This document shows positions 1,952-40,755 of a DNA stretch of 64,000 nucleotides, piece after piece. Every line of letters begins with the position of its first letter. Position 1 is the stretch's first letter. A program made the translations under genes and the position numbers. The notes below the pieces were generated by a model. The model had not been told where the DNA came from. It saw only the letters and a list, made by a program, of their open reading frames with translations, and ran no database searches. Source of the DNA: Marsupella aquatica (Eukaryota; Plantae; Marchantiophyta); NCBI GenBank assembly GCA_973895155.1, contig OZ316896.1, positions 7,511,278 through 7,575,277 of the forward strand. Direction: 5' to 3'.

Positions 1952-2672
1952 GGGTATGATAGCCATGACAGAAAACAGAAAACCTGTTACCAGGATTTTT
2001 TTTGCTGTTAACAGTCAAATTTAACTGTTACCAGTAAGCGATTCCCTGTTACCAGTTTTGCATCAATCATAGCCCTTTGGTCCAAATGAAAAACTACGCT
2101 AATCACAGAATTATTCTTTAGTGAATTAGGTTTAAAACAAACAATTATTTTGTGCCATCCGATGGATGAAGAGTACTAGCAATCCTCCCTTGCAACAACA
2201 TTTTGTTCTGGAAGATAACTGAACACGGTATGGGGACTATACTCAATGAAACATTCATTCAAATTTCACTATTCGTCCAAGCTAAAAAGCGAACCTTAGG
2301 GTGGGACCCACCACAAAACAAGTGAAGAGTAGTGTCAAAATGAACTCAATCAAAATGAGTTCACTTAAATGGACAGAGTACCGTGACAAACAAATGACAA
2401 AACACCTCCTAACGATTTATTTCAGAATAATTGAATAAACGCGGCTTGAAAGATAAAACATAATGATATCAACTTACACATTTTAAATAAAACATGTTGT
2501 AATGCTTACACTACATGCGTACATAATAAAGCAAGAAAAATAAGATTTTTGGAAGCAGCGCCCGGCGCTAACTAAAAAATACTGAACAAAACAAGTAACA
2601 TATCCGTTGGGTAAAGACAAAATAGTGACTATCCGTTATATTGAACGACCTATACGGAAGTTTCGGCCCCTA

Positions 2673-5511
2673 TTATAATCCATTCAAGTTCTGCCTCTCC
2701 AACACAAGACTGACTTCGCCCACAGTCAAAATTGGTTGGCTACAAAGAGTCGACTCCTCAACCTCAAGTTTGAAAACATTTATGTACACCCAGTATAGAT
2801 GTTTACAAGGCATGTACAACTTGCCACGCGAATGTCGTAGGAAGAAGTCCTCACAAGAGCAAGCAGGGAAGATACAGATTTGCACGAAGTACGTGCTTGG
2901 TGATCCAAGGTTCTCATGGGTTCGAATTCGAAATTGCTTTCCAAAAGCATTTCCAGTCCGAAGATTCCATTCCCCATCCAAAGTCATCTCTTCTTGTCGT
3001 GCAGACTCCATTCGCTTAGTGTGACCCACAGTGAGATTAGACCGAGGTCTTGAGTTCCTCCCATTCCGACTACCCAACCGGACATTTGGCTCCAAAAACC
3101 TTATTGTTTCTGGGAACACGTTCACATTTATCCTGAGGTCAAACGAAGATGGCGCAGATTGACTCGATCCTGTTGTTTGGGCTAAGACAAGTTCTTGCTC
3201 TTCGAGGAATGTGATTTCAGAAGGAGATAGGCTCGTACCCTTGAGAACAGGCAAAATTTCAGGAAGAGGAGGAATCTGATGAACACCACGACGTGGACGA
3301 CTCTTTATAACAGGTTTGGTTTGGGCAGAACCAAATCATTTCGGAGATTGGTTTGCCCCTAAAGAGACGATGGCCCTTCACAACAATTCCAACAACACCG
3401 TCAGACGAATGGAAGCCAACCTTCTTGATACGATTTCGACACTCATCGCGATCAGAACTCCCATTGAGTGTCCCATTACATTGGGGACCTGCTCCATACT
3501 TGGACGTCCGTCGCAGCTGCCACTGCCCCAGAGGGACATCCTTCTCTAGAACAATCGTGCGTGGAAGTGGATTCTGAAGTGAGGCTGGTGCACTGAGCGG
3601 AGGTTTTGTGGATCTTGTTGTACGGGTTGTTTGAGGGGTATTGTCCAGTGAATCAGTATCACCATCTGATGTGTCCATACCAGAGAGATTCACCAATCTT
3701 GTCAGAGGATCATTAGAATTTGAGGGAATGGAGGCAAAGTCAGTTCTGTTTAGGTTTTTCTTTTTCAAACCACGAGTATTTGGTGTGGTTAGGAGAACGG
3801 TGTCATGCCGATGGGAGTCTTGTGGAGAGACAATCCCAGTTGCATGTCCCTTTCTCTTCATTGACTTGGTCACAATATCTCCGTTAAGGGGAGTACTTCT
3901 TTCCAAATCGAAGTCCGCTGCGTTGGAAAGAAGCATGTTGGTCGCATCTTCAAATAACCTTGGCGAACCTGCTTGATCGGCGGAACGGAACGCCAATTCC
4001 CGTATAGTCGGTCCCTTTCCTCTGTTCAACCCTTTTCGATATGCACTGTATCCCGCAACTTGAGACAGGGCTCGGTTTTGGTCCACTTTGCATGCTTCAA
4101 AAAGACCAACTTTTTTCTTTGTAGCCCAAGCTTTCATAGACGCATGCCTTGATTCTGACCCTGTACAGTTGGGAATCAAGGCACCTTATTATGCGCTTTT
4201 GCTCTGCCATAGTCCGAATGCAATAATCAGTACTAGCACTGTATTATCAGCGCCCGGCGCTGACACCGACAAGTATTTATAACAAACATGAAATACAATT
4301 GCAAGTATGATTCTGGAACTTTATGGACATGTTGGACTCAAATACGAGCAAATCATACCAGCGCCTGGCGCTAATATAAAGTTGATGGAACTGTAAGACA
4401 AGAGAGGAGATGGATGTCATACCACTTGAATAAAATTGCCCCACTGGCGCCATCGAACAACCCACCAGGATATCCAGCTTTGTAGCATCATGAGCTTTCC
4501 AGGGACACAGTTTCCAGATTGCCACCAAACCACAATCTCTCGGGACACGCGATACGCTACCACAAATGTTGGAACATTTCTTAGTTTCTCCCAAAGTCTT
4601 TGATGTTCCGATTGACATTCTTCGAGTACTCCTTCCTTGGAATGCCGATGGAAAGATTGATAAAAGTGAAATGCATCAGAGCGCTCCCTCTCCGGGTCTG
4701 GGTGTCCACCGAAAAAAACATTCCGCACAGCATTCCATCCAGCTTGTGCATTGTCCGCCATAAACCCTTGGATGACAACCTCCTGTAATCCATTCTCCTT
4801 GCAAACCTCAATCATAACTCTCCAAGCCTTTTCGAAAGACTCAGTGTCTTCACCTTTCAACTTGCATGTGAAAATTGTACAAAGTGCACGGAAATTATGG
4901 TCGTAGACATGCGCGCTAAAAGTAAACCAATTGGTTGTGATACGCTGCATCACATCGAAACTGACCCAGGCTCCTTCGAGTCTTCCACCAGGTTGCATCT
5001 GTCTCAAAAGATCCACACCGGAACCGTGACCCTTCGTGGTCATTTTAAAGACGTGAGGCCTGTCGTCTTGACATCCCTGACCCGGGAGCAAATACCTCTG
5101 CAGAAACGACAGGTTAATCTTCTTCTGCATTTGCGAGAGAAAATCAAGTTCACCCCAACCCTTTTGGTCTATCCTAACGCTCCGACAAAGAGATGCAAAC
5201 TTCTAGGGAGTGGAAAGTACCATCAGAGACTTCCATATTTCAGTTTCTTCGATATCGACCATGTCGTCAACATGTTCGCAGAGAGCTTTCACTATGGACC
5301 CTGTAGCAGAATTCAAGATCCCAGCTGGTTTTGCCAGAGGATTGGCTTCATGATTTTTTTTAATTAAATCCTCAGCCATCTTCTCCGCACTCCTACAGAA
5401 GGTTTTTCTACCTGGATGGTTATGCTCACCTATATGAATTGCCAGGCGGGACATATGACTACATGTTTCCGCATCAAGTAATACTTGCGGGTACATATAG
5501 AAGGCCTTCAA
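2673..5511 (-). pseudogene. Mutator-like (MULE) transposase with C-terminal SWIM zinc finger; 5' part missing, spliced, disrupted
   Basis: IHIGEHNHP (WRKY/GCM-like tail), VSFDVM, FMADNAQAGWNAV...DAFHFYQS, GSESRHASMK (catalytic Glu region) and CSCEDF...PCKHLYWVY (SWIM). Splice donor at 4422; in-frame stops. Confidence 0.75.
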
Positions 5512-5512
5512 G

Positions 5513-8500
5513 TCATGAGATCAATGTGTCCCTTTTTTTCTCCTGCATATCTTCCTTCAAAATATCGGAATAATCCTCTCGACTTGGCTTGATTGTCTCC
5601 TCCAGGTCGGACTCCTCCAATACAAAGTGACCGGTAAAATCCTTGAAATGCTTTTCCCAATCAGGAACCCGATCTTGGGAGACGCCAAGGAAAAGAACCA
5701 TGTCCGCATCGCCTCTCATGTGTTGCGAAGGAGCATTAACCAAATAACTCCTAATGAACGAACCATATTCAAGGTGCGCATTATAGTTCTCCGAGAGATC
5801 TCGAACAGCTTCAATTATTCTTGCAAGAATAATACCAGGATGAACAAAAAAACAATTGTTACCAGATCATTTGTTGGTGTGACGCCGATGACATGGTCCT
5901 TATTCTTTAATCTGATTAACTAGGCTGCTATATGCAAGGAGTAGCTATTGATATTGCATAACAATTAGCAAGATGGCAAGAATAAGGGCAATCATGGCAT
6001 TAAGAGTAGGGGAATAAAAGCTATGTCACGGGTGGTCGGCGACCATATCTCTTTCAATATGTCACCAAATCTGGATCTGTAAAGAGTATTGGAAAGATCT
6101 GGTCAAGGCGAGTAAAATCGATATAAAACACTCGGGAAACGGAGGTGTATTAAGGGAGATACGACCTGATTAGTGTGACGGGTTAACTTGTGGCCGGAAT
6201 TAGCGGGTTCGGCTTCAGTTTCGGGTTAACCCAAAGCTCGGCCATGGCTTAGCTTAGGTAAGCACGGCTTCAGCTTAGCTCAAGTAAGCACAGCTTCAGC
6301 TTAGGCTTAGCCCGGGTTCGGATTAGATTGATCCCGGGTTAGAGTTAACTCGGGTTAGCCTAAACTCGGGCTCAAGTTAGCATAGGTAAGCTCGGGTTCG
6401 GTCTCAGCTTAGGCTAGGTTAGCGGATAGCGGATAGCGGGTAGCGGGTAGCGGCCTAACTCGAAACCACGGGTTAGCTCTACTTGGGTTAGATAGGATAG
6501 CTAGGTTAGCCGAACGCAGGTTAGCTATGTAACTCGGGTTAGCGCAGCAGTGAGTACCCCCTCTCGGTTGCGGGGGCATAACTCTCTGTGTATTTGACCA
6601 AATCGGCTATAATTGACCTCGTTGGAAAGAGGAGCTCAAGCCGCTTCCAACGCTGCTATCCACGCAGAAAATGGTTGAATAGAGAAATCGGGAGAGGAGG
6701 CGCAAGCTCGCAAAAACCATGGAGGAGGGCCAAATCCGAAGTACATAGCCAATTCGAGATAGAAATAAAGTTGCGAGTTAGGGTTCAGTAGTTAGAGATA
6801 GTGGCGGCTCTGTTAGGGTTGGGATGGGGCTCCAGCAACGTAGTATCCACCCATTTGGGCTCAGTATGAGAGTATATAGAGCAGCCCCCCGGTAGAGGCA
6901 GGGGGGCTTCAGTTGTGTGATCTCACTTAGACTGAGCAGCAGGGAGGAGCTCTGTGCAAGCAAGGCTGGACTTGGATGCTGCGTGTTGGGGAGAGCTTGG
7001 TTGTGCTATTACTCAGGGAGTAATCAGCCAAGCTTCACAGCTCCAACGGGTTGCTAGGTTTGCGAGCTGGATTGTGGCTCTTTCTAGTGGGCAGCACAAC
7101 TGGGTTCTTTTCCCCCGATACAGAGCCTTGGTGATAGGTGATGTATTGGTGATTGTAAACTATGGGGAGGATGTCAATTTGATTTGTGGTGAGCACATTA
7201 GGGAGGCTGAGATACTGATTGAGGGGCAGCAGAAGGAGCATTTATAGTTTGGTTTGGCAAGGCTAGGTGATCCATGGGGAGTCCCGGCCTTTGTCTGGTA
7301 GAGATCTGTACGTGCCCCCAAGAATGAAGTGCAGTGAAGGAGGTTGAGTTCAGGGTTGAGTTTGCAAGGCAAGTACGGGATTGGTTCGAGTCCAATCTGT
7401 CGTCGCAATCTGGAGTGAGCCGGGCTCAGGTTCAGGATTGAGCTTGCATGGCAAGCACGGGGCTTGCGGGGCAAGCATGTCGCAACCTGGAGGAGACAGC
7501 CTTCAGGCCTAGTGTTCAGATCAAGTGTTCTCAGTGAACTATTGTGCACATCTTTGAATCTAATTGAGTTTTCCTCTCAGGCCTCATTTCTCTCATGGAT
7601 GTGTGTGTGTGTGAGGCAATCTGAGTGTATGACGAGACTAGGAGCGCCACTGAGAGATGTACCGGGTGCATTGAAGTGGGTTGGGTGAGGGCTGTCACAG
7701 CTCTGATTGCTGAGAGTGGAATGGCAGAGTGGTGGGGCAATGGCTTAGAAGTCCCTAAGCCGGGAATCAGTCAGGTGTCACTGGTTTATGGGTACATTTC
7801 GGCGGCGGAATAGAAATATACCTATGACAGTAAGCATACGTATAGACATATGCGCACCGTAGCGCTAGGCCCTGTGTGTACGGGCCCGATATGAAGACCC
7901 CTTCTCACCAGAACTATCATGAGCACGGATCTGATTCCCAACCTTGGTTCCTAGGGATTGAGCTTGGGTGATGTGTGACAGAGTCTTGCTATGATAGTCT
8001 GGTGTTAAGGGCATAAATTGGTGTTTACCGGCCTTCACAACATCCCTTCGTGATCCTCAGGTACAAGGAGATGGTTTTGGCACCCATAGTGACGTTTTTG
8101 GTGTTAAGACCCATGTCAATCGCGTGACAGTTGGGATATTCACAACGATCTTCAAGAAGTTCAAGATTTTGGATTGCGTCCAAACCGGTTTTCCAGTATG
8201 GGTCAAATCAACAATCGCTAGAGATGCCAATATTGACTCCTTGCAGCTAGCCGAATCAAAAGGAGGATCAGCAGATGCGAGCAGATTTACAGTATAGAAA
8301 ACTCGGTAAGGATCCATCCTTGCGCGGAGATGGCCGCCAAACCTCTTTTGATGAATATTTCTCAACCTATGTTTCAATGGCTCCGGCATCTCTGCTTTTA
8401 ATGACACCTTCACAAGGCTCTTGAAATATCCAGTGTCCACCATTGCACAACAACGATCCAATTCCTCATTTGTGAAATTATATTGCTGAACTACATCACC

Positions 8501-11440
8501 CCAAGTTGATCCTTGCGAGAAAACCCCTTCGTACTTCTCCCGATAAAATCAAAGTATTGCCCCCTTAAGTTTGTCAATATACTTTGCTTTTCTTGCCAAT
8601 TCTGACATGGCGGGAAGATCAGTCAAAGCATGTTTCTTTTTCATCAAAAGCGCCTCCCCCAAATTCACTTTGTGGAGGATTTCCAAGATGTCGGATTCTA
8701 CTGCACCCTCAAAAACCTGGAATGTTGTCCCTATCAACTGTTTTGCTTCTTTTGATTTTCCAGTCATTTGTCCGGTTGAATCCAAAAGATTACCCTTGAG
8801 CCAATTATTGCAAACCTCTCTCCATAAAGAGTAGAGCTTCTCGGGAGCAAACAAAATCCAATTGTACCCACTGATGCTATTCACCTTTAACGTAACTTTT
8901 GCAAGTGTTTCATACTCCTGGGAGGAAAGACCAAACAACTCAAAGTTAGCCAGCTCAAAGTTTTGAATCCCAAAATACTAGAAAGGCTCTACACGACTCT
9001 CGCGTAGAAAGGAGAGAAGGACAAAGTGTCTGAATTTTGTTCACAACTCTCATGGAGAACCTACCTGAAATTCTGGAGATTTCCGACCCGATGGAAGTGG
9101 ACGAGCTGGTCGCCCCATATCATTGTATTGCATTCTTGCATGTTTCACTTGGTCAATAAATGGAGATGAAAACCGATGTGCCTCCGCCTGAAGGTTGTTC
9201 GCGTGTGAAATTTCCACAAGAACTTTCACCGGAGTTGACCCTTTGAGAATTCGCGCTCGACGATATTTGAGCAAATTGGCTGTTTGCATGAGAGATGGTT
9301 GAGTCTTTGAACTCCGGATAATTTTCTTGGCGGCCATTGTGGAATGTTGACCACTGATGGCAAAGAACTTGAATTCCGCAAGCTTCTTGGTGTCAATATC
9401 CTTTCCCGCAAGGTCAATTAAACTCGGTACTCCGTTGATCATCTTGTAAGAAACCAAATCTGTAGGTAAAGGTTCTTGCCCTGCATTTGTCATCATCAAT
9501 TGCGCAAGATGGTTGACATGCTCCTCATTGAGGAGTCTCTCATTCATCTTTGCAGGAGGGGGATGGATGTTTTCAACCGGGATAGAAAAAAATTTGGATA
9601 TCCCGAAACAATACCAAGACTTATTCAACTCCGATGTTTTTTTTGCAGTCTCCAGACGAGCACGGTCGACAACTAGCTTCGCGGAACTAGGGTTCTCATC
9701 AATATCCACATCTTCCTGATTTTTCTTTGCTTTCTTGGGCTTGCGAACGACAGCTTGAGAGGTGATGACAACCTTCTTCTCAACGTTTGGGGCCTTCTTC
9801 TCCACGGCTCTGACCATGGGAGTTTTCACAACAATTTCAGCCGACTCTGTGGCCGTTCCCCTTCGCTTAGGAGGCTTTGCCCTTGATTCCACAACTACTG
9901 ATTCAACATCAAGTTTTGCTTTTTTCTTTCCCTTTGGTGAAGGATCTTTTACGACTCCCTTTCGCTTCAGCGTCCTGATCTCCGGTTTGACCTTTTCAAC
10001 TTTCTTCCTGACCAACGCAGATTTCTGTCCAACCCGAGACTTTTGAGACGGTTTCTCCTCCTGAGGTTTTGCTGGTGAATTGACTTTCTTTGCTTTGCTT
10101 GATTTTCGTATTCTGTCCTCGATTCCTTGCACTTCCTCAACAACTTGAATTCTTTTTTGAGAAGACGTTGCCTCTTCTTGTTTATCAACCGAAGATACAT
10201 TTTTTCCACCTTTCACTTGAGGCATGACTTTGCGCTGGTCAGAAACAAGAACTCTCTTTTGAGATGGTTTCTTGTCTTCTTTTTGTTCTTCCCGTTGAAC
10301 CTTCTTGCGGCCTGTTTCGCCGCAGGCGGCTCATCTGCTTGATCAACGACTTTCACTCTCTTCCGAGGTAGTTTAGCTTCTTCTTTTGTTTTCTCAAAAT
10401 CAACCTTCTTCCGGCCTAGTTTCCCTGATGGTGATTTTTTGTCCATTGCTTTTTTCTTCCCACTGGGTGTGGATGACTTTGACACGACACCAGCTTTCCC
10501 CTTCCTGGGCAAAACTCCGTTTGAAGTCTTTGCATATCGCTTCTCTGTTGGAGGCTTTGCTGGGGGGATGACCTCATTTTGTTGAATTTCCCCACTCTCA
10601 ACATCATTGTTAATTGGTTCAACTCCACCTTCTAAACTTGTTGACTCTGACTCATTCTCTGACCCCGCCCGATTCTGAAAAGTCTTCTTGCTCTCTTCTT
10701 GGACACTTCCCTCCTCTCCATCATCCTCATTTTCTGACTCATAGACTGATATCGTTTCATGGGACTTGCTCTCTCCAGAGGCGGGCGAGTCATTGTCGGA
10801 GGAGTCATCCTCGTCCTTTCCCTCCCCATCATCATCGTCAATCTCTTTTCCACCAGCTTCTTTCTTCTTTGGGCGTACCAAGTCTTGGATTACTGGATGC
10901 CCTCGAATCCATTCCTCCACCTTTGTCTCACTGAAGTGTTTCATGAACACAACATTCGGAGAAATAGTCATCTTTCTCCTCCAGTCATCGTCTGGGATCT
11001 TCATCCGCATTATGTGATCCACCTCTCGTGTCCAAGAGATAAAATATTCCGACTGCTTCATGACATAGGAAACCCGTCCAAGCCCCATAATTATTTCATC
11101 AGCCGTAAAGACCCGATCAGGTGAGAGCCATCTATCCGCCAAAGGATCAAAGAAACCGCATGAGACAACATTTGTGTCCTGGTTGTAAGGTTCAAGACAA
11201 TGTGCTGAGAAAAACCCATGAAGTGGAGCAACCATCAGCTTGAAATTCCAAGAACTCTCAGACTCCAATGTCAGCAGAAGAGATGGGTTGTCCTTTGGGG
11301 ATGCAAATCTCGTACAGTACGAGAGTGCCAAAACTCATAAAGTTTCTTTGTCCATTTTCTGTTTTAACTCCCCTCACAATCAAACGGTAGTTGCCTTTGA
11401 CTGGTTGCAATTCAAAAGACCATGAATTCATAGTCGCCAA
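5513..11440 (-). pseudogene. ParB-1: spliced gene with acidic/Lys-rich N-terminus, ParB/Srx-like domain and a possible degenerate methyltransferase-like C-terminus; split by element B1
   Basis: FSIPVENIHP...NERLLNEEHVNHLA...FFAISGQHS resembles the ParB/Srx core. A GT-AG intron at 8978..9064 joins ORF 9050..10225 in frame to 8549..8938. The frame VNIPT|NDLVTIV continues across B1. ADPPF motif in ORF 8057..8461. Confidence 0.6.
5878..8129. mobile_element. Family-B solo-LTR-like element B1 (2252 bp, non-coding), inverted relative to B2
   Basis: Ends TGTGACGCC...GTGACA; exact 5-bp TSD GTTGG (5873-5877 and 8130-8134); reverse-complement homologue of 18083..20579. Confidence 0.92.
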
Positions 11441-12132
11441 AATATTCTCAAGTTTTGCGACCGTTGGAGTTTCAATCCGGAGCCTGTCAAAACAGAAATA
11501 AACAGAGCGAACTCCTAGAAGACAAGGAGAAATATGTCAAACATCTGCACGACACTCGCGTAGAAAATAAAGTGAGCCGACAAACTGTTGCTTCATTATA
11601 AACAAAATGATGTGAAAACATCCTTTACAAAATGGCCTCTTTGGCGTGTAAACAGTCCGGCAAAAAATGACTATCAGAACTTTGGAGATAGTCTTATGAG
11701 CCATTTGAGCTCATCATGATTTGGAGTCAAAACATTGTCCAGATTTAAGAAAACAATCTGATCCGCTAGAAACATAAGAGTTCCCTAACTCAAAGTATGC
11801 GCACACATGTGGCCATGAAGGCAACAATTTTTCTTTTCCAATTCAATCCATCGCACTTTGGTATCCAATTGTCTTTCCCTCTCTCAGCCATCGGCCAGCT
11901 CCTGTCGCAAGTCATGAACTTGACGATCTTGAATTTTCTCCATCTCAAGGGGTATAGCGACGGAGACAGGAAATAGGTAAACAAGAATTTTTTTTCCTAT
12001 TTTTAATATGCTATTACCAGGAAAAATCCACTGTTACCAGGAAAAATGACAATTTAAAAATATCTCATAAAACATGTTATTTCCAAAAAAAATTAACAAT
12101 GCAACATTTTTGGCTAGCTTTGGGCGCTACTA

Positions 12133-13336
12133 TTAGCAGCGCCGGGCGCTAGCAAAAAAAACTGGCCAACCGAAACAAAAAATTTCAAAAAAAATTCCAC
12201 CCATTTTCCTGTTACCAGTTTTTTTCCTGTTACCAGTTTCTGTTATTAAATCCTGTTTCCTGTTTGCTATCTTTTGTAAACACCTCATCTCAAGAGAAGC
12301 TTTCATGGACTTTGCCGCTACGTCGCAAGTAGTCAAATGCTGGATCTGTGCCCATCGATACTTTGCAAACATCTGCTCCCGTTCGTATTCTATTGCTTCC
12401 TTTTCATCCTCCAACGCTTTTTGGAGAATGGAATTCTCCATCAAACTCATATCAAATGCAGAAATACTTTTTTGTAACAATCCCTCAATCTTCTCAAAAT
12501 CGTCCTTGCGATGAGCGCCTTCCTCTAGAAAAGTTGAACGAACAAAGTCACATGAACAATGTTTTGATTCCATATGGTACATATGAACGAGGATTCTACA
12601 TGACAGTCGCGTAGAAAACATGAGTTTCTACACGACAGTCGCGTCGAAATCCATTATCTCCAAGATTGGAGAATTGGTTCTACGTGAGACTCGTGTAGAA
12701 CTAAACAGGAAATTCTAAATTCTGACATAACGGCTCTCAAATAGAGACTATGGGTCGATGAAAGAGACCCATTCTACACGACTCTCGTGTAGAGCAGACT
12801 CAAGTTTAGCACAATCCATTGAAAACAGAGAAATGTAGGTCAGAATTACCTTTGAGCTTCCTCAATGCAGTGAGAGCAAGTAATTCGGCATCATTTTTTG
12901 CCAAATAAGTCGTCATTCCCTTCGCATGTGCGAACTCCTCCACAATAATGTCAAGGACCGACGAGTTGAGCAAAATAAAATAGAAAACACAAATGATCCA
13001 AGGTCCGAGGTCCGAGGTCCTTTTATAGTCCGAGATGAGCGTGAAAGAGCATATCGTCCGAGGCGAGCGTGAAAGAGCGTATTGTCCGAAGCGAGCGTGA
13101 AAGAGCGTGAAACAATCTGAGGGCCAAGCGTGAGAGAGAGAGCGTGAGAGAAAGAGAGAGAGTGAGAGAGAAAGAGAGAGAGTTCGTGATTGAGAGAGAA
13201 AGACAATGAGAGCGACAGCGAGCTGGAAAGCAACATATACCCCTTCCACGTGGAATACTGTCAAACAATGATTGCGGTTGCTACCCGGCCGCCAAACCTG
13301 ACACTCGGGATCTGGTGGAGGACGTGTCATTAACAT
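12133..13336 (-). other. Possible small spliced gene remnant (short coiled-coil exon) with CT-rich leader
   Basis: Helical ORF segment (DDFEKIEGLLQKSISAFDMSLMENSILQKALEDEKEAIEYERE) and a donor-like site near 12850; no recognisable domain. Confidence 0.25.
13035..13203. repeat. GAGCGTGAAAGAGC repeats grading into a (GA)n microsatellite
   Basis: Read directly from the sequence. Confidence 0.85.
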
Positions 13337-13701
13337 GGCAAACCACCACCCGCCGCCAAACCAATCCGCATTTATGGAAACGACTGGTCACCACACTCCA
13401 CGCCGCCACAAAAAAGTACTACACGACAATCTGGTAGAGTTGAATGTCTGAAATTCTTGCACCCCCACTCACTATATAACGTGACAGACCACTTCATGCA
13501 AGTCATTTTTTGAGACCTGACTCATTCGTGCCTTCAGTCCGAGGTGGGACTGTCGTTAAAGCGTGCTCTATTGTTTCTGAAACTGCATCGGTACAGTTTC
13601 TCATACAGTTTTTCTCCTGTCATTTTCAATTTTGTTTTAGTGATTGTGTCAGTATGTGAATGCATGTGCTTGAGTCTTTCCCATTGGGATGTGGTTTAAC
13701 T

Positions 13702-14293
13702 GTATATTCAGTAGTAATCTAGTAATCTCTATTGAATTTTGGACTTTTGATTTGCTACACGAGTCTCGTGTTGTTCCCCTGGTCTATCTAAATACAACAT
13801 TCAATACAAAGTTCCTCTAATGAGAATACTCATTTCAGAATATCCATCTCTCTATAGAAGTTTTAAGAGCCTACGAGTGTGTATTCAGTAGTAATCTCTA
13901 TTGAATTTTGGACTTTTGATTGTCTACACGAGCCTCGTGTTGTTCCCCTCGTCTATGCAAATACAACGTTCAATAGGAAGTTCCTAAAAGAAGAATACTC
14001 ATTTCAAAATATCCATCTCTGTATAGAAGGTTTAAGAGCCTACTAGTTTGGATTCAGTCGTAAACTGTATTGAATATTGGACTTTGGATTGTCTACACGA
14101 GCCTCGTGTTGTTCCCCTCGTCTATCCAAATACAATATTCAATAGAACGTTCCTCTAAGAAGTATACTCATTTCAAAATATGCATCTTTGTATAGAAGGT
14201 TTAAGAGCCTACTAGTGTGGATTCAGTCGTAATCTCTATTGAATATTGGACTTTTGATTGTCTACACGAGTCTTGTGTTGTTCCCCTCGTCTA
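13702..14293. repeat. 169-bp tandem repeat, about 3.5 units, each carrying a CTACACGAG-N-CTCGTGT site
   Basis: Anchor AATCTCTATTGAA or a variant at 13724, 13893, 14062 and 14231. Confidence 0.92.
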
Positions 14294-14489
14294 AGATACA
14301 ATAGAATTTTCTATTTAATGAAAGAACCTTCAACTTTGTAGATGACTGTCTCCATTGCTTGTTTAAACTGGATTTGAATTTTCAGTTCTGTGATATTTGC
14401 TTAGATTAGAGTTAGACATTTTCACACGAGCCTCATGTAGGCTGTTTTAAAAGATGTTTTTGTTGCAAATATTTTTCCTTAGATCCAAA

Positions 14490-17400
14490 ATGGCTTCAAG
14501 AACATAGCTTCTACCTGGAGAAGTCGTTCACCTGCTTATCAATGAACAACCAATTGCTGGTGGAAAGGTTTTTTGTGTTCTACCATCCGACACCTGCCAC
14601 TCTGTGTTGCTTGGAGCAGAACGGATAAGTGTGGCGGTGGACAATGCTTTCTTTCACCTCGAACAACTGCCGTATCCACATGCGGGAGTTGATCTAGTAG
14701 GAGAGTCGGTGAACTCCATTGTTTTGTGGGATCGGCAAGATGTCCGCCATGCAAATGACATGAATCTTGGAGGTCAAACAGAGTCAGCTTATGTCATTGA
14801 TGACCCAGTTGACAATATTCAAGGTAATTCTGAATCAGCCACCAGACTGGAGGGGACAGAGGTTTTTGCAGAGGATCTGAAAGATCATAGCACATGGTTC
14901 AAGAAGTTTGCCCTTCTCTATGCGGACGACGGAGAAACCTTGCTCGCAAGAGGTTGCATCATAAACCCACATCCTCTCGCATCCATTAACAACGAGCGAG
15001 TTGGGGAAGATCATGTTGGTGTGAATATTTGAGTCTAGCTATTGAAGCTGGCTTGGGAAAAGTTCTGTTCCCTCAATTTGTTGATGGATCACCATGCACA
15101 GGTCGATGGCCAATCAACAAAACTAGGATTGAGCCTGGAATGGAATGTCTGAGTGATCTTTTAGATCGGAATGATGGTAACGATGAGGGAGTTAGAATTC
15201 TCTCATATATCAAGCCAAAAAGGGGCTATAACAATCAACGAAGAAATCCTCAAGATTCAAACAAGAAGGAGAGAAAACGACTCGAGAAAAGACGCAATCA
15301 AAAGATGTCTCGAGTGTCCATAGATACTCTTTATCGGGTTGATTGTTGCTCACAGAGTTGTTGTCGACGACAACTCCGTGAGACCGTCACTGACATTAGG
15401 GAAGAGTACTATGGTCTATCTCATGTTGAGCAACATACTTACGTGCTCAATCATCTTCACTGTCGTGACGATGAAACCATCGCCTCAGGCATGATTGTAT
15501 TCAAGGGAAGCAGGATCTGCAAGGAAGCTTTCTGGAATATTCATGGATTTTCTCGAGGAACATTTTACACAATGTATTCACAATACATGGAGGGGGCAAA
15601 AGTTGGTGTTCATGGGAATGAAGGGACCATCAAGACCAAAGACTACGTTGTGTTGTTCACAGAATCAATTCGAAGTATCCTACATAAATGTGCAGAACCA
15701 ATGCCACATCTTCACAAAATTGGTGTTTCAGGCAAGCCGGAAGTTGTTTTCAGGGTTCCAATAAGTTTCGAGAGAAAAGATGTTTTTGAAGAGGCTTGCG
15801 AGCTTAACAAAAACCTGGGTATTCACTTACCCTCTCTCCCAACCTTCTACAAGCTTTTGGATAAATATTTCCCCAATTTCCAATTCCAAGATCGGAGCAA
15901 CTTTGCAAAATGCGATCTCTGCACGACCATTAAAGAAACACTTCGGGGGGAGAAACGGGTGGATAAGATTTTAGAAATCAAGGCAAAGCGCGAACGGCAT
16001 ATGTTGGAACAACAATCACTCAGGAGTATGTACTATGCAACAAAACTTGCGGCGGACCAAGAGCCCGACAAATATTTGTCTGTGATTCATGATAAAATGG
16101 ATCAAGCCAAGACCGGAATCCCTAAAATGACTTCTACACTCAAGAGCCAAGGAGGAAAATCAATCCCGCTACCAATGACGTTGACGAGGATGTTAACGCA
16201 TGGACGGGAGCCTGGAATTTATGCACATTTTGCCCTTTCTGGTTTGTGGGCAAGCAATCCTGATTTTACAGTCTCTTCGATTGCAAAGTTATTTCATGAT
16301 CTCGAATCATTTGTGGGAGATAAGACCGGCGATCTAGCTCTCAACACCTTTGACGTCACAGATCCAATCTTTGTATCCCTCTTGGATCGGCGTGCCTTTG
16401 AGGTAGGATACCTCGAAACCAAAAAGATCTCTCTCGCTCACTTCGCAGGGCTTGGTGATAATGTGCCACACGAGAGTCGTGTAGAGCCTTCAACATTGCT
16501 ACCCTTCAAGGCGCTTCCTCGACACCTCCACCTTCAACTTGATAACTCTGAAAGGATAACAAGAACCAGATAGTTCTGGCTTTCAATAGTGAGCTTGTTC
16601 TAAGAGGAGTGTTTGAGTCAGTAACTCTTTCCTTTTTGATGGTGGGGCACACTCATGAGGATGTGGATGCCTTCTTCTCTAGAGTCAGGATAAGGATCTA
16701 CAATCGAGAGCTTACCACATTTTTTGGTTTGATGGCGGAGGTTTGGGAGTGCGAGAAGAAACATCCGGTTCCAAGGTTCATCCGCGAAGTTGCATCTTAC
16801 AAAGCTTATGTAGGACCATTTGTCAAAAGGATCCAGGGTCAATCAGCACCTGTTCAATTCTTGTTCTCAATGAAGGAGAATGTCCCAGTCTACCAATATT
16901 GAGAGAAAATTGATACGCCTTGGCTACCAACAAAGGGTCAAACAATTTGGTTGTTTGACTTAGAGAGAAACCAATACAAATTTCCAATTGGAAGTCCTTA
17001 TTCCAAGCGGATGGAGTCTTCTCACAAGCGAGCGAATGACATTTTGGAATACTTGATCCATTATATCTCATGGCTAAAGACTTCATGGAAGGATGTTACA
17101 TCGGAGGGATATCGTCTCTGAAGTCCAGAGATTCAATACTGGGAAAACATTGTTTCTGTGTTTCAGGACACACTTTGCTCTCCTTTGCTAGCAGGGGTAG
17201 ATTATCCATTACTTGATGGATTCTGGCCTCAAACGAACCATGGAACTGGGTATCGTCAGGATGGTCAGAACGTGGATACCAACCTAAGCAAAGACAATGG
17301 GGTGATGCATAATCTGGAAAGAGAGCTTCAAGAAGATGAAGAAGAGAGGCAAACAATCTTTGTCGGACACCCTTCTGAGCGTGAGAGGTCAAGATTTAGT

Positions 17401-17799
17401 CCTCTAGAAGATATTAAAAAGAATACATTTGTTATTATTTGACCCCCCGATGAATTTGAAACCAGAATTCCGCAACGATTTTGGCTTGCAAAAGCAATCG
17501 ATTGTGTCGTAAGAGATCCCGACGATGCGCATGTTGGAGAGTTCCAAGTTGAATGGTGGCGCCCTCTTAATCGCAAGAGTTTGGCAACCGAATCAGAAAG
17601 ATATCAGGACTGCTTTAATTCAAAGCAAACGTGGGAAAGGGATCCCAATTACCTCATTCCCCCAGTCACAAATGATTGGATCCTAGCAACTTCAACCATC
17701 ACCAGATGGACATCAAAAGCAAAAGCAAAGGTAAAAGTTCCAGCGAGAGTTTTGGAAAGTGTGAAGGTTTACATTACAGAAACGATTGAAGAGAACTAA
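14490..17799 (+). pseudogene. DDE/DDD transposase of Sola-like/DUF7869 type with two N-terminal beta-barrel-like repeats and a C-terminal BAH/Tudor-like segment; stops and frameshifts
   Basis: CCSQSC, ICKEAFWNIHG, FAKCDLC, IHDKMDQAK, LHLQLDNSE and FLMVGHTHEDVDAFFSR motifs; C-terminal FWLAKA...FQVEWWRP. Confidence 0.75.
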
Positions 17800-18082
17800 A
17801 ATCCTTTCTCGACGCGAGACTCGCATGGAAGAAACTTGGTGATGCACGACACGTCCTAATTGTCGGGTTCAGGATTGTGGAAGAACAATAGGCGAGGTTG
17901 GAGCTGGTTTGTTCCAATCATTTTCCGCACGAGGCTCGTGTAGGCCGGATTACTTAGCTCGAGGATCATTTTTCAGAAAGTGAAAGGTGTGTACTTGTAC
18001 TCAATGTCATATTCACTGCAATGGCGCGCATATCGACCTTTGGCTCGTGTCTGTTGTGGCCACAATGATGGTTTGGTGCCGG

Positions 18083-20579: not shown

Positions 20580-21247
20580 GCCGGATCACGAGATTTGGGT
20601 GGGATGAGCTCAATTTCCTTCATTATTGAGGTTAAATTGACAGGTGCTTTTGTATCATAATTGTGCTACATGAGGCTCGCGTAGGATGTCATAATCAACT
20701 TATGACTTGCAAATCTCGGATCTTATCACAGACACCCATATTCACACGGCATGTACTAATTTTCGGGTTGAGGACTGTGGGAGAACAATAAGCGAGGTTG
20801 GAGTTGGTTGGTTCCATTCACTTTCCGCACGAGGCTCATGTAGGCCGGACAGCTCTAGGATCATTATGACCTTTGGAAAGTGAAAGGTGTGTACTTGTAT
20901 TGAATGTCACTTTCACTGCAATGGCGCGCATGTCGACTTATGGCTCGGGTTCGTTGTGGCCACAATGATGGTGTGGTGCCGGGTCACGGGTTTTAGTATC
21001 ATAATTGTGCCATACGTGGCTCGTGTAGGATGTCATAATGAACTTATGACTTGCAAATCCCGGATCTCATCACACACACCTTTATTCGAGAGGCTTGTTT
21101 CTCTCCTTCAAGTTATGCTTTGTGATGAACTTCTGGCTCAGTCTCCAACATCTCTCTGATCAAATCTCCTTCTGATCAAATCTTCCTTTTCCAAATTGAG
21201 CATTTGACAACCATTTTGGATCGTGGTGATTTTCCTTAACTTTCATA

Positions 21248-23845: not shown

Positions 23846-26800
23846 ATGGGAGATAGTCATGCCGGTCATTTTGAGTCCTCACAGTCCTCTTTTTCAGGTT
23901 CTGTGTACACCCGTCGTGTGACTCGGTCCGTTGCGTCTCATTCACATTCAGACATTGGCTCAACTCTTCCAACCACGCGATCAAGAAGGGGGAGAATGGA
24001 CATGACTGAGGAAGTTGCGTGGGTTGATTTTGGTGTTGCTGGACTTTCAATGGACGAGTACATATCCAAGCATGTCTTGTCCTTTGGCAAAGATTTTAGA
24101 GGATTGGAGACTCAGGAGCCTCCACAAATTCCTCTGTGTCGATTGATTCATATGGAAGTGGTGCGGATGTTGCAGAAGCAGAGCGCCTCCATTGACAAAT
24201 TGAAGAAGTCATTCCGGATTTCTGGATACAATTCACGCATGGGCATGCCATTTTACGTACAGCCAACGAATGCGGATGGGGTTCCACAGATTTGCACTAA
24301 TGAGATTAGAGCCTCTTGGGACCCAATCTTGGTTGCCGTGAATGACAAGTTCGAGGAAGAGTGTGACGCTGTTCCTGATTTCAGAGTTTTGAAGGACAAG
24401 ATGTTTTGTGTCTTTGATGGAAATCACCGTTTGTATTCATGGTCGATTGTGACAGTAGAGCATCCGGACAACATTAAGTACCACCCTCGTGTGACTTGCA
24501 TTGTTTTCAATGGAGATAAAGGTTCCCTCGTGGAGCTTGAGGCTGCCATGCACGCTGTCAACCAGTAAGTCATTCCTCCGGATAACCTCATTTAATATGA
24601 CGTACTAGTTCAAGATGTACTTTTGATGTGATATTATCTTTGGTGTTTTACTAGCGCCCGACGCTACTAATTTCCATTTAAATTTTGACGTAGGTTGGGA
24701 CAAGCTATGGTTGAGCCATCTTGGATTCTTGATGCTGACAGAATCTCTCGTCTTTTATCCCGCGACCTAGAGCACTACAAACCCCTCATTGATGCTACAA
24801 GTTATGCAAAGTTTGAAGCCATTCAAAAGAAGACTCGCAAGGGTTCTTGGTATACACACAAGATGCCACAAGACGCGCTCATCTACATTTTGTATGAGAA
24901 CAAGACTAAATCTTACACAAACCAGTTCAAAGTGGACATGGATTTTGCAGCAGCCCAGGGGACTCCTTGGTCTGAAGAGGAGACGCAGAAGAGGCATGAA
25001 GGTATGATGAAAGAAGCGACAAAAGATTGGGCTATCAAAGTAACAAAGATCACTCCATTGCTACACCCTGATTTTGGTGACTACTTGGCCACATGTGCGG
25101 ACATGTTTCCCGTGACAAAGAAGAACAAAAGAGAAAAGAAACCCAATACAGTTGTTTGCACTATGGATCGCGCTCGCCTGTTTACTGCAGTGACTTATCT
25201 AGATCCAAAGCCAAGGTGTACACTTCTTGTCGCCCATTGTACTCCAGAGATTCGGAAACAGTTCTTTCATCCGACTAGTGTGAACGACAATCCAGTAAAA
25301 CAGTGGTGCCATACCTAGCATATCTAGAATTCAGTGGAGGAAATTGCTACTGGATTGATCCTCACCTCGCTCGAGCAGATTTTGGATCGCATGCCAGATG
25401 ATCGTCTAGTCAAGTCTGGTTGTGAGTCCGTGGATTTTCTCATGAAGTCCATTATTGAAGAATTCAAATCATTTGGAGACCTTGTCAAGGCTAAACTTTT
25501 CAACATAATGTGGCCATCAAAGTATGCAGACAAGGAGGACTACACTGAGCGGAACCAGAAACGAGCCAAACGATACGTTTACCATTTCTACATGTGGATG
25601 GAGTTGCGATCTCCTGAGGTTTTGTGGGCTTACCCTGGTGCATTTCAAAAGTGGGTGATGATCAAAGATGGTGACCACCTTGTTGATCTATATTCGATGT
25701 ACCCAGCTGAGGGAAAGTTTCCACCTCGTGCCTTGTCAGAGTGGGAGAGACTCCACTGCCCATGGTATCTAGACACTGACAAATGGGATCTGCCTTTTGA
25801 CGAGGTGGAGAAAGACGCTTTCATGAAGTTGCAAAAGTCACAAATCCCGGCAAGGTATGTATCGGAGATGAAGCAAGGTCTTGCAATTGAAGTGGACGCT
25901 TTGACAACTAAGCTGCAAAAGAAATGCGAGACAGTCGTCGTGCATGTTGATCGGAGCCGAAAGCCAAGAGTGAAGGCCAAGAATGAATCTGCAGCTCCCA
26001 GTGAATTAACTCGATCTCTTAAAAAACATAAGTATGCCTCTTAGGATTCAGTAAGGGATTCCCGCTCTTGTTCGTATGACATATTTTTCCCCAATTGATA
26101 CTAGCGTCGAGCGCTATTATGAGAACTAGTTCCGTTGAGTAACGTATCTCTGTCTTTCAGGGGGAAGGAAGTTGGATGCCACCACTGATGTAAAAGATGA
26201 CGCTACTCCTCAGGCCTCTAAAGCTAACACTGGTGCGGAAAATACACCAGATCCGGGAACCCTTGGGGAGAGTGGAAAGGCAGTGGTTCCAGTGGACGCG
26301 ACAAGTATGAAGAAGAAGAAAAAGAGAGGAACACTTGATGATAGGTTCGGATCTTCGTCCCGAGATTCAGTTGCATCTACTGGATTGCAAAGAGATGTGA
26401 GGAATTTCAAACAAAAGTGTACTCGACATTGTTTTGTGGAGTTGAGTGTTACAGAATGTTTTGATTCCCTGTTTAACAAGGGAGAAAAGCCGGACTGGGT
26501 TTCTAATATTGAAGGTTGGGGGAAAGAGCTGGTGAAGTCTGGGGATTGAGCAAAAGGGGTTGTCCAAGGGGGAAAAGAAAGAGCTTTTGGAGTTGATGCT
26601 GGTTTCATATATCTTTCGACTGGGTTGAAACCAACACTTGTGGATAGGAAGGTTCCTAAATGGAACCTACAAGATTATACAATTCCAAGTGCCTTCTTCA
26701 GAACAATGGATCCTTTCCTAGCAGATGATGGATTGCTAGCGATTTTGCACAGGGGCGACTACGACCAAGTTTCTGAAGTCATTGCAGCTTGTCAAGATTC

Positions 26801-28002
26801 ACAGAAATTTCAGTGTATCTCGACACACAATGTTGTGATGGGCACTCCAATGTACAGGCCTCGCTCAGATATGCAGGTATGTATAATGGCGCTTGGCGCT
26901 ATTCCAGAGTTTCTATTTTGTGTCCTCCTTTGGACATTTGACGGTGACGCTAGCGCCAGGCGCTAGTGTGGCATATCCTCTTCATGCAAGGTTTCTATAT
27001 TCTTGACATTGTATCTGATGTTTATTCTGAACAAAACGTTATTCGATGTGCAGATTTTTATGCTCACCCTCAATGTTTTTGGGCGTGTTTTGTCCAAAGG
27101 TAGGGTCCCGAAGGATCCCAAATTTTTGGCCTCTTTCACATACAGAGGATCCTTTGATAACCAATCTCATTGGTTTTCCCGTGCCAAAAAATGATCCTCT
27201 ACCGGAGCTTGCGTTTGCTGGGAATTCAAGGCTGCCTGTGGTTTTCATGTAGTCAATTTTAGGATTAATTACCCTCCCTGGGGATATTGTCATGGACTGG
27301 ACTGTTGGGGCCGGAAGTACATTTGTTGTTGGAGATCATTGTGGGAGGTTTGTAGTCGGGATTGAAAATCGTAAAGAGTTTCTTGACACTGCCACAAAAG
27401 TTTTCTTTGGACTTCTCGAGAACAAAGAGGCCTCCACATCCATGCCTCCGCACCGGCAGGTGGGGAGTAAGAAGCAGGACAGACTCAGTGTCCAAAGATG
27501 ATGGTGCCTCCAAGAAAGTGGTGAACCTCGGGTCTTCTGAATCTGAGGATAATGAAGAGTCTTCTGAGTAATGATCTTCAGCTTCCCTGTCTTTATTTTC
27601 TTTTTAAGGGTGACGTTAGTGTCTCCAAAATTCCACCATTTTCCCGGATCCAACTAAAGATATCGGATTCAACTTTCCAGGTCTGAGTGGAATCTTTGGA
27701 AGTGCTTTCAACTACGGAGGAAAGTCGCTAGGAATGCAATAGAAACCCCGGAGAAGCCATTTGTCTTGCCTTCCTATGCGGAAAAGGCAGCTCGAAAAGC
27801 AAATTTTGTGAGAATGCTGACTTGGGAAAGCAAAGGCCTGAGGCTCAAAAGGGGCTCGGATAGGAAGTTTATGAGGAACCGCTATGTCGATGACATCGTC
27901 CCGAACGAGTATGTAGACGACAAAGCTGAGTCTACTGATAGATCACAAAGTAGTGAAGAAGAATCAGAACTAGATACGACTGATTCAGAATCTGATGGCT
28001 AG
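23846..28002 (+). pseudogene. ParB-2: five-exon gene, N-terminal ParB/Srx-like domain fused to a C-terminal beta-class N6-adenine/N4-cytosine DNA methyltransferase-like domain
   Basis: IPLCRL...VVRML...IDKLKKSF...FCVFDGNHRL (ParB/Srx GxHR). FFRTMDPFLADDGLLAIL and TLPGDIVMDWTVGAGSTF...GRFVVGIE resemble the SAM-binding motif I region of N6_N4_Mtase. Introns 24565..24693, 26051..26160, 26877..27053 and about 27569..27680. Premature stops at 25316, 26042 and 26547. Confidence 0.75.
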
Positions 28003-28566
28003 CCAGACTTTAAAACAAATGAATAGTTTTTGGATAGAGATATAGGCTATTTTACAAAATAGCGCTTGGCGCTATTGTGAACACACGTAATATTGATGGG
28101 TGTTTATAAAGTGAGACGGACTGTCCAGATTGCTTTTTGACTATACTTTCCTCTATGAAGAGGACAATCTTAACTTGGGATGTATTATAATTCAGTGATA
28201 TTAGAATATGACTGCCCCCTTCCCAATCTTTCATCAATTGGCATCTGATGGTCTTTAATTGATCTCTATTTTTTAGGTCTGTTATTGAGGTCTGTATACT
28301 AGCACTAGGCGCTAGTATACATTTGTTTTTGGGCATACTTTTGCAGATAGATGTTTTGAATGAGGTTTTGGGTATTCTAGACTGTTTCAAGACTGTAGTG
28401 CTGGGCGCTAGTATTGCGATGTGTTTCAAAATAACGGATTTTAGAGGTTTCAATTTCATTTTGCGAGAGATGTAGGATTAGGGAAGATTTTTTTGGTGCA
28501 GACATTTGCTGTTATGAGCTTTACTGTTTGCTGTTTGTTGTTTGCTGTCACCGTGAAAAGCCTCGT

Positions 28567-31852: not shown

Positions 31853-32193
31853 AAATGTCCCATGTGTTTCATATGTTTATGTATTGAGACTCTTTTTATA
31901 TAACTCCACTAGATGTGCAGGAGCTCTGCACATGCGTTGAGTATGCCCTTTAGTGCCACATCGATAACAAATACTAGGAGGATTGGTATACTTATCTCTA
32001 TTTACTGTAGTCCTCTTATGTTGGTTATTTGTTTGACCTCTCTGCCAGGTATTTCTGGAGCCTCCAAAACTGGATCGGCCCCTACCTCGTCCACGAAAAG
32101 ATTGAAATCTTCCTCCCCGTTGGGAACTTTGGCCTCTGCCTCTGAAATTTCCTCTACCACGTGATGAAGTTGTAGCAATTTGCCGTGGAGCAT

Positions 32194-37807: not shown

Positions 37808-37966
37808 TGTTTTATCACAATGCTCAGCCAGAAAATCAATCCCTTCATTCATGATCTCAAAGGTATATGTACAAGGTAGTTATCCTAGGTAGTTGTGGTA
37901 GTTACCTAAGGTTAAGGAGTAACCTTAACTTAGACTTAAACTATCCTATCCTATGTATCATAATAA
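37808..37966 (-). repeat. Putative short 5' LTR of the Copia element (outer boundary approximate)
   Basis: Abuts the PBS; there is no second LTR in the window to confirm its length. Confidence 0.45.
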
Positions 37967-39499: not shown

Positions 39500-40755
39500 T
39501 ACAGAGGGAGTTCTATCCATGGATGCTGTCATTGCCAAATACGCAATGTCATTTGGAGTAGATTTCCGCGGGGAGAAGAAAGAGTCGTCGGGTATCCCTC
39601 TTTGCCGCCTTGTTCACATGGAAGTCGTTCGGACTTTCTAGAAAAATAGTGCATCTATCGACAAGCTCAAGAATTCATTTTGCAGCTCTGGGTACAACTC
39701 TTCAATTGGGATACGGTTTTATGTGTCCAGCCTGCGGATTCAGAAGGAGTTGTTCAATTGTGCACGCCTGAAATTTGGAAGACCTGGGATGCTGTTTGGG
39801 TTGCTCATAACGACTTGTTTGAAGCAGAATGTGCTTTTGATCCGTACTTCCACATTTTGAAGGATAAGATGCTTTGTGTCTTTGATGGGAATCATCGACT
39901 CTACACGTGGACTCAAGTAACAAATGAGAACCCAGACAATATCAAGTACCATCTGCGTGTTCAATGCACTATCTTTAAGGGAGATTGAGGTTCTCTAGTT
40001 GAGCTTGAAGCGGCTATGCACACGGTGAACTAGTAACTCATCCTTCAGTTGCATAAACGGTATTAAATTTGATGGATTGCTTGATTTTTGCAAGGTTGGT
40101 TAGCGCCTGGCGCTGCTAACTTAAGGTATCTCTCTCAGGTGAGGGCAAGCAGTAGTGGAACCGTCATGGATTCTCGACGCCAATAGAATCAATCGGATTC
40201 TAACACATGACCTGGAGGCCTACAAGCCTATCATCGACCCTGCCAGCTTCAAGCAATTTTAGACTATTTGCGCAAAGACAAGAAAGGGGTCGTGGTATCC
40301 CAAGCACATGCCATTGGAAGCATTGGTTTACATCTTGTGCGAAAACAAGATTAAGTCGTATTCACTTCAATTTAAGCTTGACTTGGCTGCTGCTACAACT
40401 CAAGGTTGCCCGTGGTCATCTAAAGAGATCGGTAAGCGGTATGCTGCCATGATGAAGGAGGCAACAAAGGAGTGGAGCATAAAGACATCCAAGATTACCC
40501 CCTGATAAGCCCAGAGTGGCAATTTTCTGTCAACTTGTGCAAAAATGTACATACTTACGGAGAGGAACAAACGGGAAAAGAAACCAAACTTTGTAGTTTG
40601 TACGATGGACCGCGTGCGTCTGTTCACTGTTGTCTCTTATTTGGATCCAAAGCTGCGATGTACCCTTCTTGTCGCTCACTGTACACCCGAGCTCAGAAAA
40701 CAATTTTTCCACCCCCCGAGTGTTAATGATGACCCTGTTAAACAGTGGTGTCGAT
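39500..40755 (+). pseudogene. Second, diverged fragment of the ParB-2 gene, cut at the CACTA terminus
   Basis: IPLCRLVHMEVVR, CVFDGNHRLY and KNKREKKPN..VCTMDR..LF...SVND.PVKQWC match 23846..25318; same intron position (40033..40138). Confidence 0.9.

Follow-up and report, generated by a model that had tools for sequence, protein, structure and literature searches.

Sequence-specific anti-silencing by transposon proteins has been established for Arabidopsis VANC and for Spm TnpA. VANC motifs lie in the introns, intergenic DNA and terminal non-coding regions of VANDAL elements (PMC5735166; PMC10398659), and Spm TnpA and the AtMu1 transposase bind family-specific motifs and reduce methylation (bioRxiv 10.64898/2026.08.24.746577). 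The ParB-type protein VirB counteracts silencing at a distance (PMC10770331). In the present study, we analyzed a 64,000-nucleotide stretch of DNA from the liverwort Marsupella aquatica (assembly GCA_973895155.1, contig OZ316896.1, positions 7,511,278 to 7,575,277; hereafter, the window). The window is transposon-rich DNA in which a palindromic site, dyad A, recurs. The copies of dyad A trace to a single family of Mutator-like (MULE) DNA transposons. The ends of this family are defined, and its genes encode a transposase and a fusion of a ParB/Srx-fold, a helical and a beta-class N6/N4-methylase-like part (ParB-2; Table 1). Dyad A is real and selected; we infer its binder and its function. Our preferred reading, to which we assign a probability of approximately 45%, is that the ParB-methylase-like protein docks at the dyads, which are specific to its family, and that this docking likely serves anti-silencing.

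With up to two mismatches, dyad A was found 16 times in the window, against 0.05 copies expected, and none of 100 shuffled sequences reached this number. A previous model reading of the letters alone (the sequence-only reading) had listed the same 16 copies, and all are present, with one start corrected from 4247 to 4248. It had also given the consensus as TAGCGCC-N-GGCGCTA. The recurring palindrome stands; however, this literal form occurs exactly only once (26951), and the core is YAGCGCY-N-RGCGCTR. With up to one mismatch, this core yielded 18 matches (0.01 expected), namely, the 16 copies and the sites at 7860 and 18339. The latter two are homologous sites, one in each of two solo long terminal repeats (LTRs), and score 3-5 bits with a 21-bp matrix versus 19-30 bits for the 16 copies (14-29 bits when each copy was left out in turn). 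The only other site of any strength in the matrix scan, at 12115, scored 15 bits, and everything else remained at or below 6.7 bits. We regard 12115 as a weaker 17th copy; in 30 null sequences, the top score was 17 and the mean of the maxima was 7.9. The 53 kb of the window outside the segments of the dyad A family contained no strong copy and only 3 weak matches.

The alignment of the 16 copies extended the site to a 21-bp dyad, T-R-N-YAGCGCY-N-RGCGCTR-N-Y-A, in which neither the central base nor the base that adjoins each arm on its outer side is constrained. This adjoining base is free and pairs in 5 of the 16 copies. Two bases outside the core, a position that lay outside the search pattern, there is a purine on the left or a pyrimidine on the right in 31 of the 32 half-sites, symmetrically, and T or A follows one base further out in 22 of 32.

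In the two large segments, 69% of which is coding, no dyad A copy lies in coding DNA (0/14; P ~1e-7), as had been claimed for exons. The distribution also agrees with that previously described: one, one and two copies in introns 1, 2 and 3 of ParB-2, respectively, two in the transposase intron, four upstream of ParB-2 and three downstream. The introns are sequence-based calls that use GT-AG signals, stop codons and homologues. Half of the 16 copies lie outside them (2556, the upstream four and the downstream three), and 12137 lies in an element without genes. The flanks of different copies are unrelated, with a best local score of 27, and no copy is located in a tandem repeat; the earlier statements that the flanks differ and that this is not a simple repeat were thus correct.

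The conservation of dyad A was assessed against paralogous and genomic copies. ParB-2 and its truncated paralogue ParB-3 share 136 of 204 amino acids, and only 10 of 49 fourfold degenerate sites are identical, i.e., these sites are saturated. The dyad in their orthologous intron nevertheless retains 12 of 14 non-centre positions and is followed directly by CTAAY in both genes, while the 5' part of the same intron is only slightly above shuffled sequences (41/500 reached its score). Contigs of genomic copies, obtained from three runs, were aligned to 23130-23490; a further run (X6) yielded none. Among the differences listed, 40 differences at 39 positions, none fell in the 56 non-centre dyad positions, against 6.0 expected (P 9e-4; 5/361 in a rotation null; P 0.013 for the interior alone), and the single listed variant inside a dyad affects a centre base (23293). 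Some contigs match the dyad islands and skip the intervening spacer (joints 23169-23182 to 23279), and a minimal 337-bp derivative retains two copies. Target site duplications (TSDs) were not found at the dyad borders: the mean longest flank repeat was 5.0 versus 4.9 at random sites, and the only 6-bp repeat (28300) is the self-palindromic GTATAC. On these comparisons, dyad A is under selection as a maintained cis-element and is not the scar of a miniature inverted-repeat transposable element (MITE), because it is conserved relative to saturated sites and across copies and has no border TSDs. The possibility that the copies are remnants of a tiny MITE with TSDs had been named beforehand as the outcome that would speak against the sequence-only reading; no TSDs flank the dyads and their conservation requires selection, which largely refutes this identity.

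The dyad A family has four related termini: left-type ends that start from GGGTAT at 1952 and 11950, and right-type ends that start from GAGG at 12286 and 28564. They are short and degenerate. The 337-bp derivative, which is complete and non-coding, has an end of each type and a TSD of 8 or 9 bp (ATCTCAAG / CATCTCAAG). MULEs generate TSDs of 8-11 bp. The derivative sits inside a reading frame or gene of a different element, which carries dyad B (see below). The repeat CTGTTACCAG, which differs from dyad A, occurs subterminally at 1984-2055, 12031 and 12209-12236 and may be bound by the transposase. The decayed transposase gene follows the end at 1952, and the ParB-like gene is bounded by that at 28564. 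The Pfam MULE hidden Markov model gave no hit for the decayed transposase; therefore, its assignment rests on language-model features (the ten best named hits in the ESM Atlas all belong to the MULE/ZSWIM family or clan [RNase H-like], the best at 0.92) and on residues that we take to be typical of MULE transposases. The acceptor of its intron is uncertain. We considered a single intact insertion of 26.6 kb from 1952 to 28564 and rejected it: the outer flanks differ and come from different elements, and the two halves therefore represent either separate copies or a recombinant. Many copies of the family exist (925 and 949 matching contigs in two runs).

ParB-2 is decayed by in-frame stops and a frameshift near 27123. 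Exon 1 extends to 24564, and exons 2, 3 and 4 span 24694-~26050, 26161-26876 and 27054-~27498, respectively. Intron 1 is well supported, since the same donor position is present in the paralogue and in two related metagenome loci (L001 and L002). The last exon matches Pfam PF01555 (N6_N4_Mtase; 31 bits, cut-off 26.7) at positions 165-220 of the family, the region of S-adenosylmethionine (SAM)-binding motif I, and its sequence matches in the PDB are DpnA and CcrM. Homologues of ParB-2 occur in Ceratodon, Riccia and Adiantum, in keeping with a seed-free land plant as the source, and the long ones align along its length; Ceratodon KAG0631975.1 and Riccia KAL3677308.1 are candidate intact homologues. 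The locus tags of the two Ceratodon members belong to different chromosomes in two strains, which hints at mobility of the family.

A structural model of a Riccia homologue (P0034; 67-row alignment, predicted local distance difference test score [pLDDT] 76) was compared with known structures. The four best VIA-align matches were KorB, PadC, pNOB8-ParB and sulfiredoxin, with Z-scores of 7.9 to 5.9; the KorB match (root mean square deviation [rmsd] 2.6 over 95 residues) is moderate, since its Z is below 8. In Foldseek, nine of the ten top rows were ParB, Noc or DndB-complex entries, none of which reached an E-value of 0.001, and in the ESM Atlas ParB_N was annotated on 11% of one cluster for the ParB-like domain. 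We accept the moderate Z-score because Foldseek and the ESM Atlas agree, and conclude that, in the model, the N-terminus of the homologue has the ParB/Srx fold. For the stretch at 23990-24562, the nearest ESM Atlas clusters were fungal, with DUF3723 on 31% of their members; DUF3723 is an accessory gene of fungal Starship elements. Of 161 stored proteins, 79 retain the motif D/E-GNHR; the pattern has no match in 54, many of which are fragments. The classical CTP-binding motif of ParB is GxRR. For the helical middle domain, Z was 5.1 (rmsd 6.4) with a DNA-binding domain of ParB and 4.2 with Spo0J, both within the helical background, and a PDB sequence search with a profile of the ParB and middle parts gave no real hit. 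The catalytic strand of the methylase-like domain reads DTPF, DMPS, DFPT, DLPT or DMPT in all seven homologues that have it, and YLST in ParB-2. Active N4C/N6A methylases usually have (S/D/N)PP(Y/F/W) at this position. Since D-x-P-[T/S/F] or YLST replaces this motif, methylase activity is doubtful.

Other dyads of similar design occur nearby. A separate element nested between the two halves (Table 1), the ends of which were not found, carries dyad B, CTACACGA-N3-TCGTGTAG, in 17 copies against 0.09 expected (8989-21028). Dyad B is confined to this element, where it is located in inferred introns of the possibly ParB-like gene ParB-1, in spacers, in a 169-bp tandem array (4/17) and in one coding stretch (16466). 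The element contains two related solo-LTR-like insertions in opposite orientation (5866-8129 and 18083-20579), each with one of the weak dyad-A-like sites; that at 5866-8129 has a 5-bp TSD, GTTGG, and interrupts ParB-1, and a partial third copy is present at 59261-59500. In metagenomes, three loci related to ParB-2 were found (L001-L003); L001 is 40% identical, and dyad A is absent from all three. L001 carries a third dyad, ATCTCRGC-N7-GCCGAGAT, both copies of which are located in the corresponding intron 1, inside a ~50-bp unit that is duplicated; the dyad was spotted by eye, and its chance figure uses a pattern taken from L001 itself. In L003, a foldback of ~115 bp built on TTTCTGCGATCGCAGAAA occurs three times (388-690 and 3116-3233), twice upstream of a distant ParB-like gene and once apparently inside its intron. 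Scans of metagenomes with a single protein and of viral contigs and prokaryote genomes with an alignment revealed no related loci.

Among the described systems, VANC and VANDAL resemble the locus in layout. Both combine a Mutator-like element with an accessory gene and family-specific short motifs in introns and non-coding DNA, and in both the motif also occurs outside the main element, in a non-VANDAL element in Arabidopsis and in a non-autonomous derivative here. However, VANC motifs are 8-9 bp in length and accumulate in tandem repeats, whereas dyad A is a 21-bp palindrome that is dispersed singly; no copy of dyad A lies in an array, and the string "palindrom" is absent from the main text of PMC5735166. 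The accessory protein also differs, being a ParB-methylase-like fusion here, and the VANC family had no Pfam hit in 32+7 open reading frames of the window or in 15 homologues. Dyad A is not a VANC system because its protein differs and because it is palindromic and not tandem. The motifs of Spm TnpA and AtMu1, of 8-10 bp, also differ from dyad A, and their regulators derive from transposases; the preprint text consulted on them mentions neither ParB nor bryophytes.

The ParB/parS clamps, i.e., KorB-OB of RK2, VirB-virS and Noc-NBS, resemble our system in the ParB/Srx N-terminal fold and in palindromes dispersed over a mobile element (PMC11790492, PMC10770331). The OB oligonucleotide (PMC11790492) contains TTTAGCGGCTAAA, which is also an odd-length TAGC...GCTA dyad; this is probably a coincidence. 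In contrast to these bacterial clamps, ParB-2 is eukaryotic, contains introns, is fused to a methylase-like domain and has GNHR in place of the CTP motif, and no ParA was seen. Eukaryotic beta-class N4/N6 methylases of bacterial origin, such as MpDN4MT1 of Marchantia (10.1101/2021.02.12.428880) and rotifer N4CMT (PMC8885841), belong to the Pfam family found in both ParB-2 and Ceratodon KAG0631975.1, and a Dam-like clade fused to a ParB-HTH has been described in chlorophytes and chytrids (PMC4738411). However, MpDN4MT1 has TSPPY and no extra domains, whereas the ParB-2 family has D-x-P-[T/S/F] and a ParB/Srx fusion and is located in a transposon. We cannot file ParB-2 as a ParB/parS system or as an active methylase, since the helix-turn-helix (HTH) and the CTP clamp are putative and the catalytic motif differs. 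A ParB-bearing plant transposon or dyads of this type were not described in the literature searched, a weak negative as most subscription papers lay outside its coverage.

In our preferred reading, the ParB-fold, methylase-like protein would dock at dyad A on double-stranded DNA and load as a dimer. As suggested by VANC and VirB, it may then form a nucleotide-dependent clamp and spread from the dyad sites, and the docked protein is predicted to keep the transposon open against host silencing. The methylase-like domain would more likely bind or shield CG-rich DNA than methylate it because the SAM-binding-type motif is kept and the usual catalytic motif is not. A broader proposal, which we consider possible but doubtful, is that DNA transposons of seed-free plants carry a bacterial-derived parS/ParB-like system: the ParB-methylase-like fusion of each family would load as a nucleotide-dependent clamp at the family's own intronic and spacer palindromes, spread, and block or mimic cytosine methylation, and binder and site would co-evolve in superfamilies that are unrelated to each other. 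Recognition of dyad A by a dimeric protein is the better supported part of our reading; the choice of the ParB fusion over the transposase as this protein is weaker.

Several results weigh against docking by the ParB fusion. VIA-align of the P0034 model did not reveal a convincing HTH in the helical middle, only generic helical hits with Z 4-5. The two halves of the composite at 1952-28564 (1952-5520 and ~23100-28564) have no TSD in common, and their linkage consequently rests on the matching end types and the 337-bp element. ParB-1 is a possible ParB-like gene only: the family profile does not detect it, its weak hints (PHROG E 0.16; hhalign E 0.11) are not significant, and its single-sequence fold had a pLDDT of 33. 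A comparable dyad is present in only one of the three related loci, L001, with L003 having the longer foldback instead; no dyad was found in L002 in a palindrome scan of loops 0-5, a blank that is weak because the dyad of L001 has a loop of 7. Dyad C, GGGATAC-N3-GTATCCC, occurs in 11 copies in a non-coding element (44698-48365) with no ParB gene in view. The differences listed between genomic copies represent 40 of 68 variant rows. In addition, the two flanks of a given dyad A copy are more complementary than expected from permuted flanks (58 versus 43.6 in-register pairs, p 0.0006), which a protein that reads a consensus does not explain; in a folding version of this test, p was 0.057 after the two strongest copies were dropped, and the copies are not fully independent.

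This flank symmetry leads to the question of whether dyad A acts as a structure, either as an RNA hairpin in the pre-mRNA, for example by the branch point, or as a single-stranded DNA or cruciform hairpin. We consider this unlikely. The intron-1 dyad adjoins CTAAT or CTAAC in both paralogues, and 12 of 15 mismatches in the stems would be tolerated as G-U on the sense strand (12137 left out). However, the G-U bias appears to reflect strand composition because it is equally evident at positions 7 and 9, where a hairpin allows no pairing. These positions are constrained as Y-N-R in 16/16 copies, with seven T-G versus two C-A combinations and no compensatory T-A pair. Folding z-scores are modest (-0.75 to -3.07 in eight copies), Rfam gave no match, half of the copies are extra-intronic and 12137 is in a gene-less element. 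The flanks of dyad B show no complementarity effect (p 0.37), and template switching at the birth of the sites could account for the symmetry at dyad A. The free bases beside the core, the constrained but unpairable Y-N-R and the lack of a compensatory pair favour recognition of double-stranded DNA, and we infer that a dimeric protein reads dyad A in this form. The sequence-only reading had proposed a selected dyad read by a dimeric protein. It is supported in part: the selection is borne out, and the symmetric outer purine/pyrimidine position fits a putative dimeric reader. It did not cover the assignment of the copies to one transposon family, the two sites in the small TSD-bearing element, the methylase-like end of ParB-2 or the other dyads nearby.

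If a protein reads the double-stranded dyad, the MULE transposase or another element protein may do so, using it as an internal transposition enhancer or for self-activation in the manner of TnpA sites or AtMu1 targets. This is the main rival, and we regard it as rather unlikely. Both the 337-bp derivative, which has no genes, and the transposase's own intron contain the dyad, dyad C lacks a ParB gene in view, and the AtMu1 transposase activates cognate copies sequence-specifically (bioRxiv 10.64898/2026.08.24.746577). However, the termini already have the distinct subterminal repeat, so dyad A is not the obvious transposase end site, and most dyads are kilobases internal, around the ParB-fusion gene. 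The element with dyad B, which has a different transposase-like gene (DUF7869), repeats the intron-dyad layout, and this favours the ParB fusion as reader. Captured binding sites of a host transcription or chromatin factor that secures expression are quite improbable: upstream clustering is typical of enhancers, and selection by itself leaves the binder unnamed, but the dyads of the neighbouring families differ in sequence and are similar in design, as is more readily explained by co-evolution within each element than by a single host factor, and strong copies are lacking elsewhere in the window. Neutral origins, whether from a tiny MITE or through mutation that perfects palindromes, are very improbable and largely refuted. 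Two copies do lie in a small TSD-bearing element and the flanks show some inverted symmetry; however, border TSDs are lacking, and conservation against saturated sites and across copies requires selection, particularly for a CG-rich sequence.

If the ParB fusion docks at dyad A, a ParB-fold, methylase-like accessory protein and selected palindromes would represent an independent anti-silencing solution in mosses, liverworts and ferns, and the fusion would be a candidate ParB-type DNA clamp acting in eukaryotic chromatin. If the clamp reading is also correct, eukaryotes would have an equivalent of the antisilencer VirB. The 21-bp site, the candidate intact homologues and dyad B, as a specificity control, are defined for testing.

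Table 1. Features of the dyad A family and of the nested element (positions within the window)
Feature	Position	Strand	Basis
Left-type terminus GGGTAT...GACAG.AAA with three CTGTTACCAG subterminal repeats	1952..2055	+	end type shared with 11950
Dyad A copy, downstream of transposase gene	2556..2570	.	pattern search
Decayed gene of the MULE-like transposase, lacking its 5' part; single inferred intron ~4186-4422	2673..5520	-	
Two dyad A copies (4248, 4359), transposase intron	4248..4373	.	pattern and matrix
Nested separate element: ParB-1 (possibly ParB-like, minus), DUF7869 gene 14490-17799 (+), two solo LTRs, dyad B	5513..21028	.	
337-bp non-autonomous element, both family termini, dyad A 12115 (weak) and 12137	11950..12286	.	
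Four dyad A copies clustered upstream of ParB-2 (23149, 23286, 23402, 23461)	23149..23475	.	pattern; kept across genomic copies
ParB-2, decayed ParB/Srx - helical - N6/N4-methylase-like gene	23846..27498	+	Pfam, PDB, fold of homologue, homologues
ParB-2 intron 1, dyad A 24652 directly before CTAAT branch-like site	24565..24693	+	
ParB-2 intron 2, dyad A 26102; donor 26032 or 26051, uncertain	26051..26160	+	
ParB-2 intron 3, dyad A 26887 and 26951	26877..27053	+	
Three downstream dyad A copies (28060, 28300, 28396)	28060..28410	.	pattern search
Right-type terminus GAGG...GACAGCAAAC, adjoining truncated Copia-like RNase H region	28484..28564	-	same end type as 12286
ParB-3, truncated paralogue; intron 40033-40138 keeps dyad A 40101 before CTAAC	39507..40757	+	

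Among minor results, a search for homologues of ParB-2 exon 2 among longer proteins returned nothing. With the dyads removed, the observed/expected CpG ratio was 0.98 in the ParB-2 introns, 0.85 upstream, 0.57 in the exons and 0.47 downstream. The intron and upstream values hint at local protection from methylation; we do not use them as support because the regions are short and the downstream value is low.

Dyads are recurrent in the DNA transposons of this window, and not all of them can be linked to a ParB gene. The element with dyad C has CACAGTGACGGACCAAAC terminal inverted repeats and related GGGATCC-ATG-GATCC forms. Elsewhere in the window, an element with long coiled-coil open reading frames is present in three related copies (1-1951, 32193-36843 and 52357-56456), one of which sits within a Copia-like retrotransposon (28565-37645), between its gag-like and its pol-like part. 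A tandem array of ~577-bp units, each with an internal palindrome, occupies 41488-44680, and AAATGAC/GTCATT motifs are abundant around it. The region 59500-64000 is CACTA-like; it has a weak Transposase_24 match (61862-62506, E 1.5e-4, below the cut-off), and GTGACT/AGTCAC motifs are repeated near 59500-59830.

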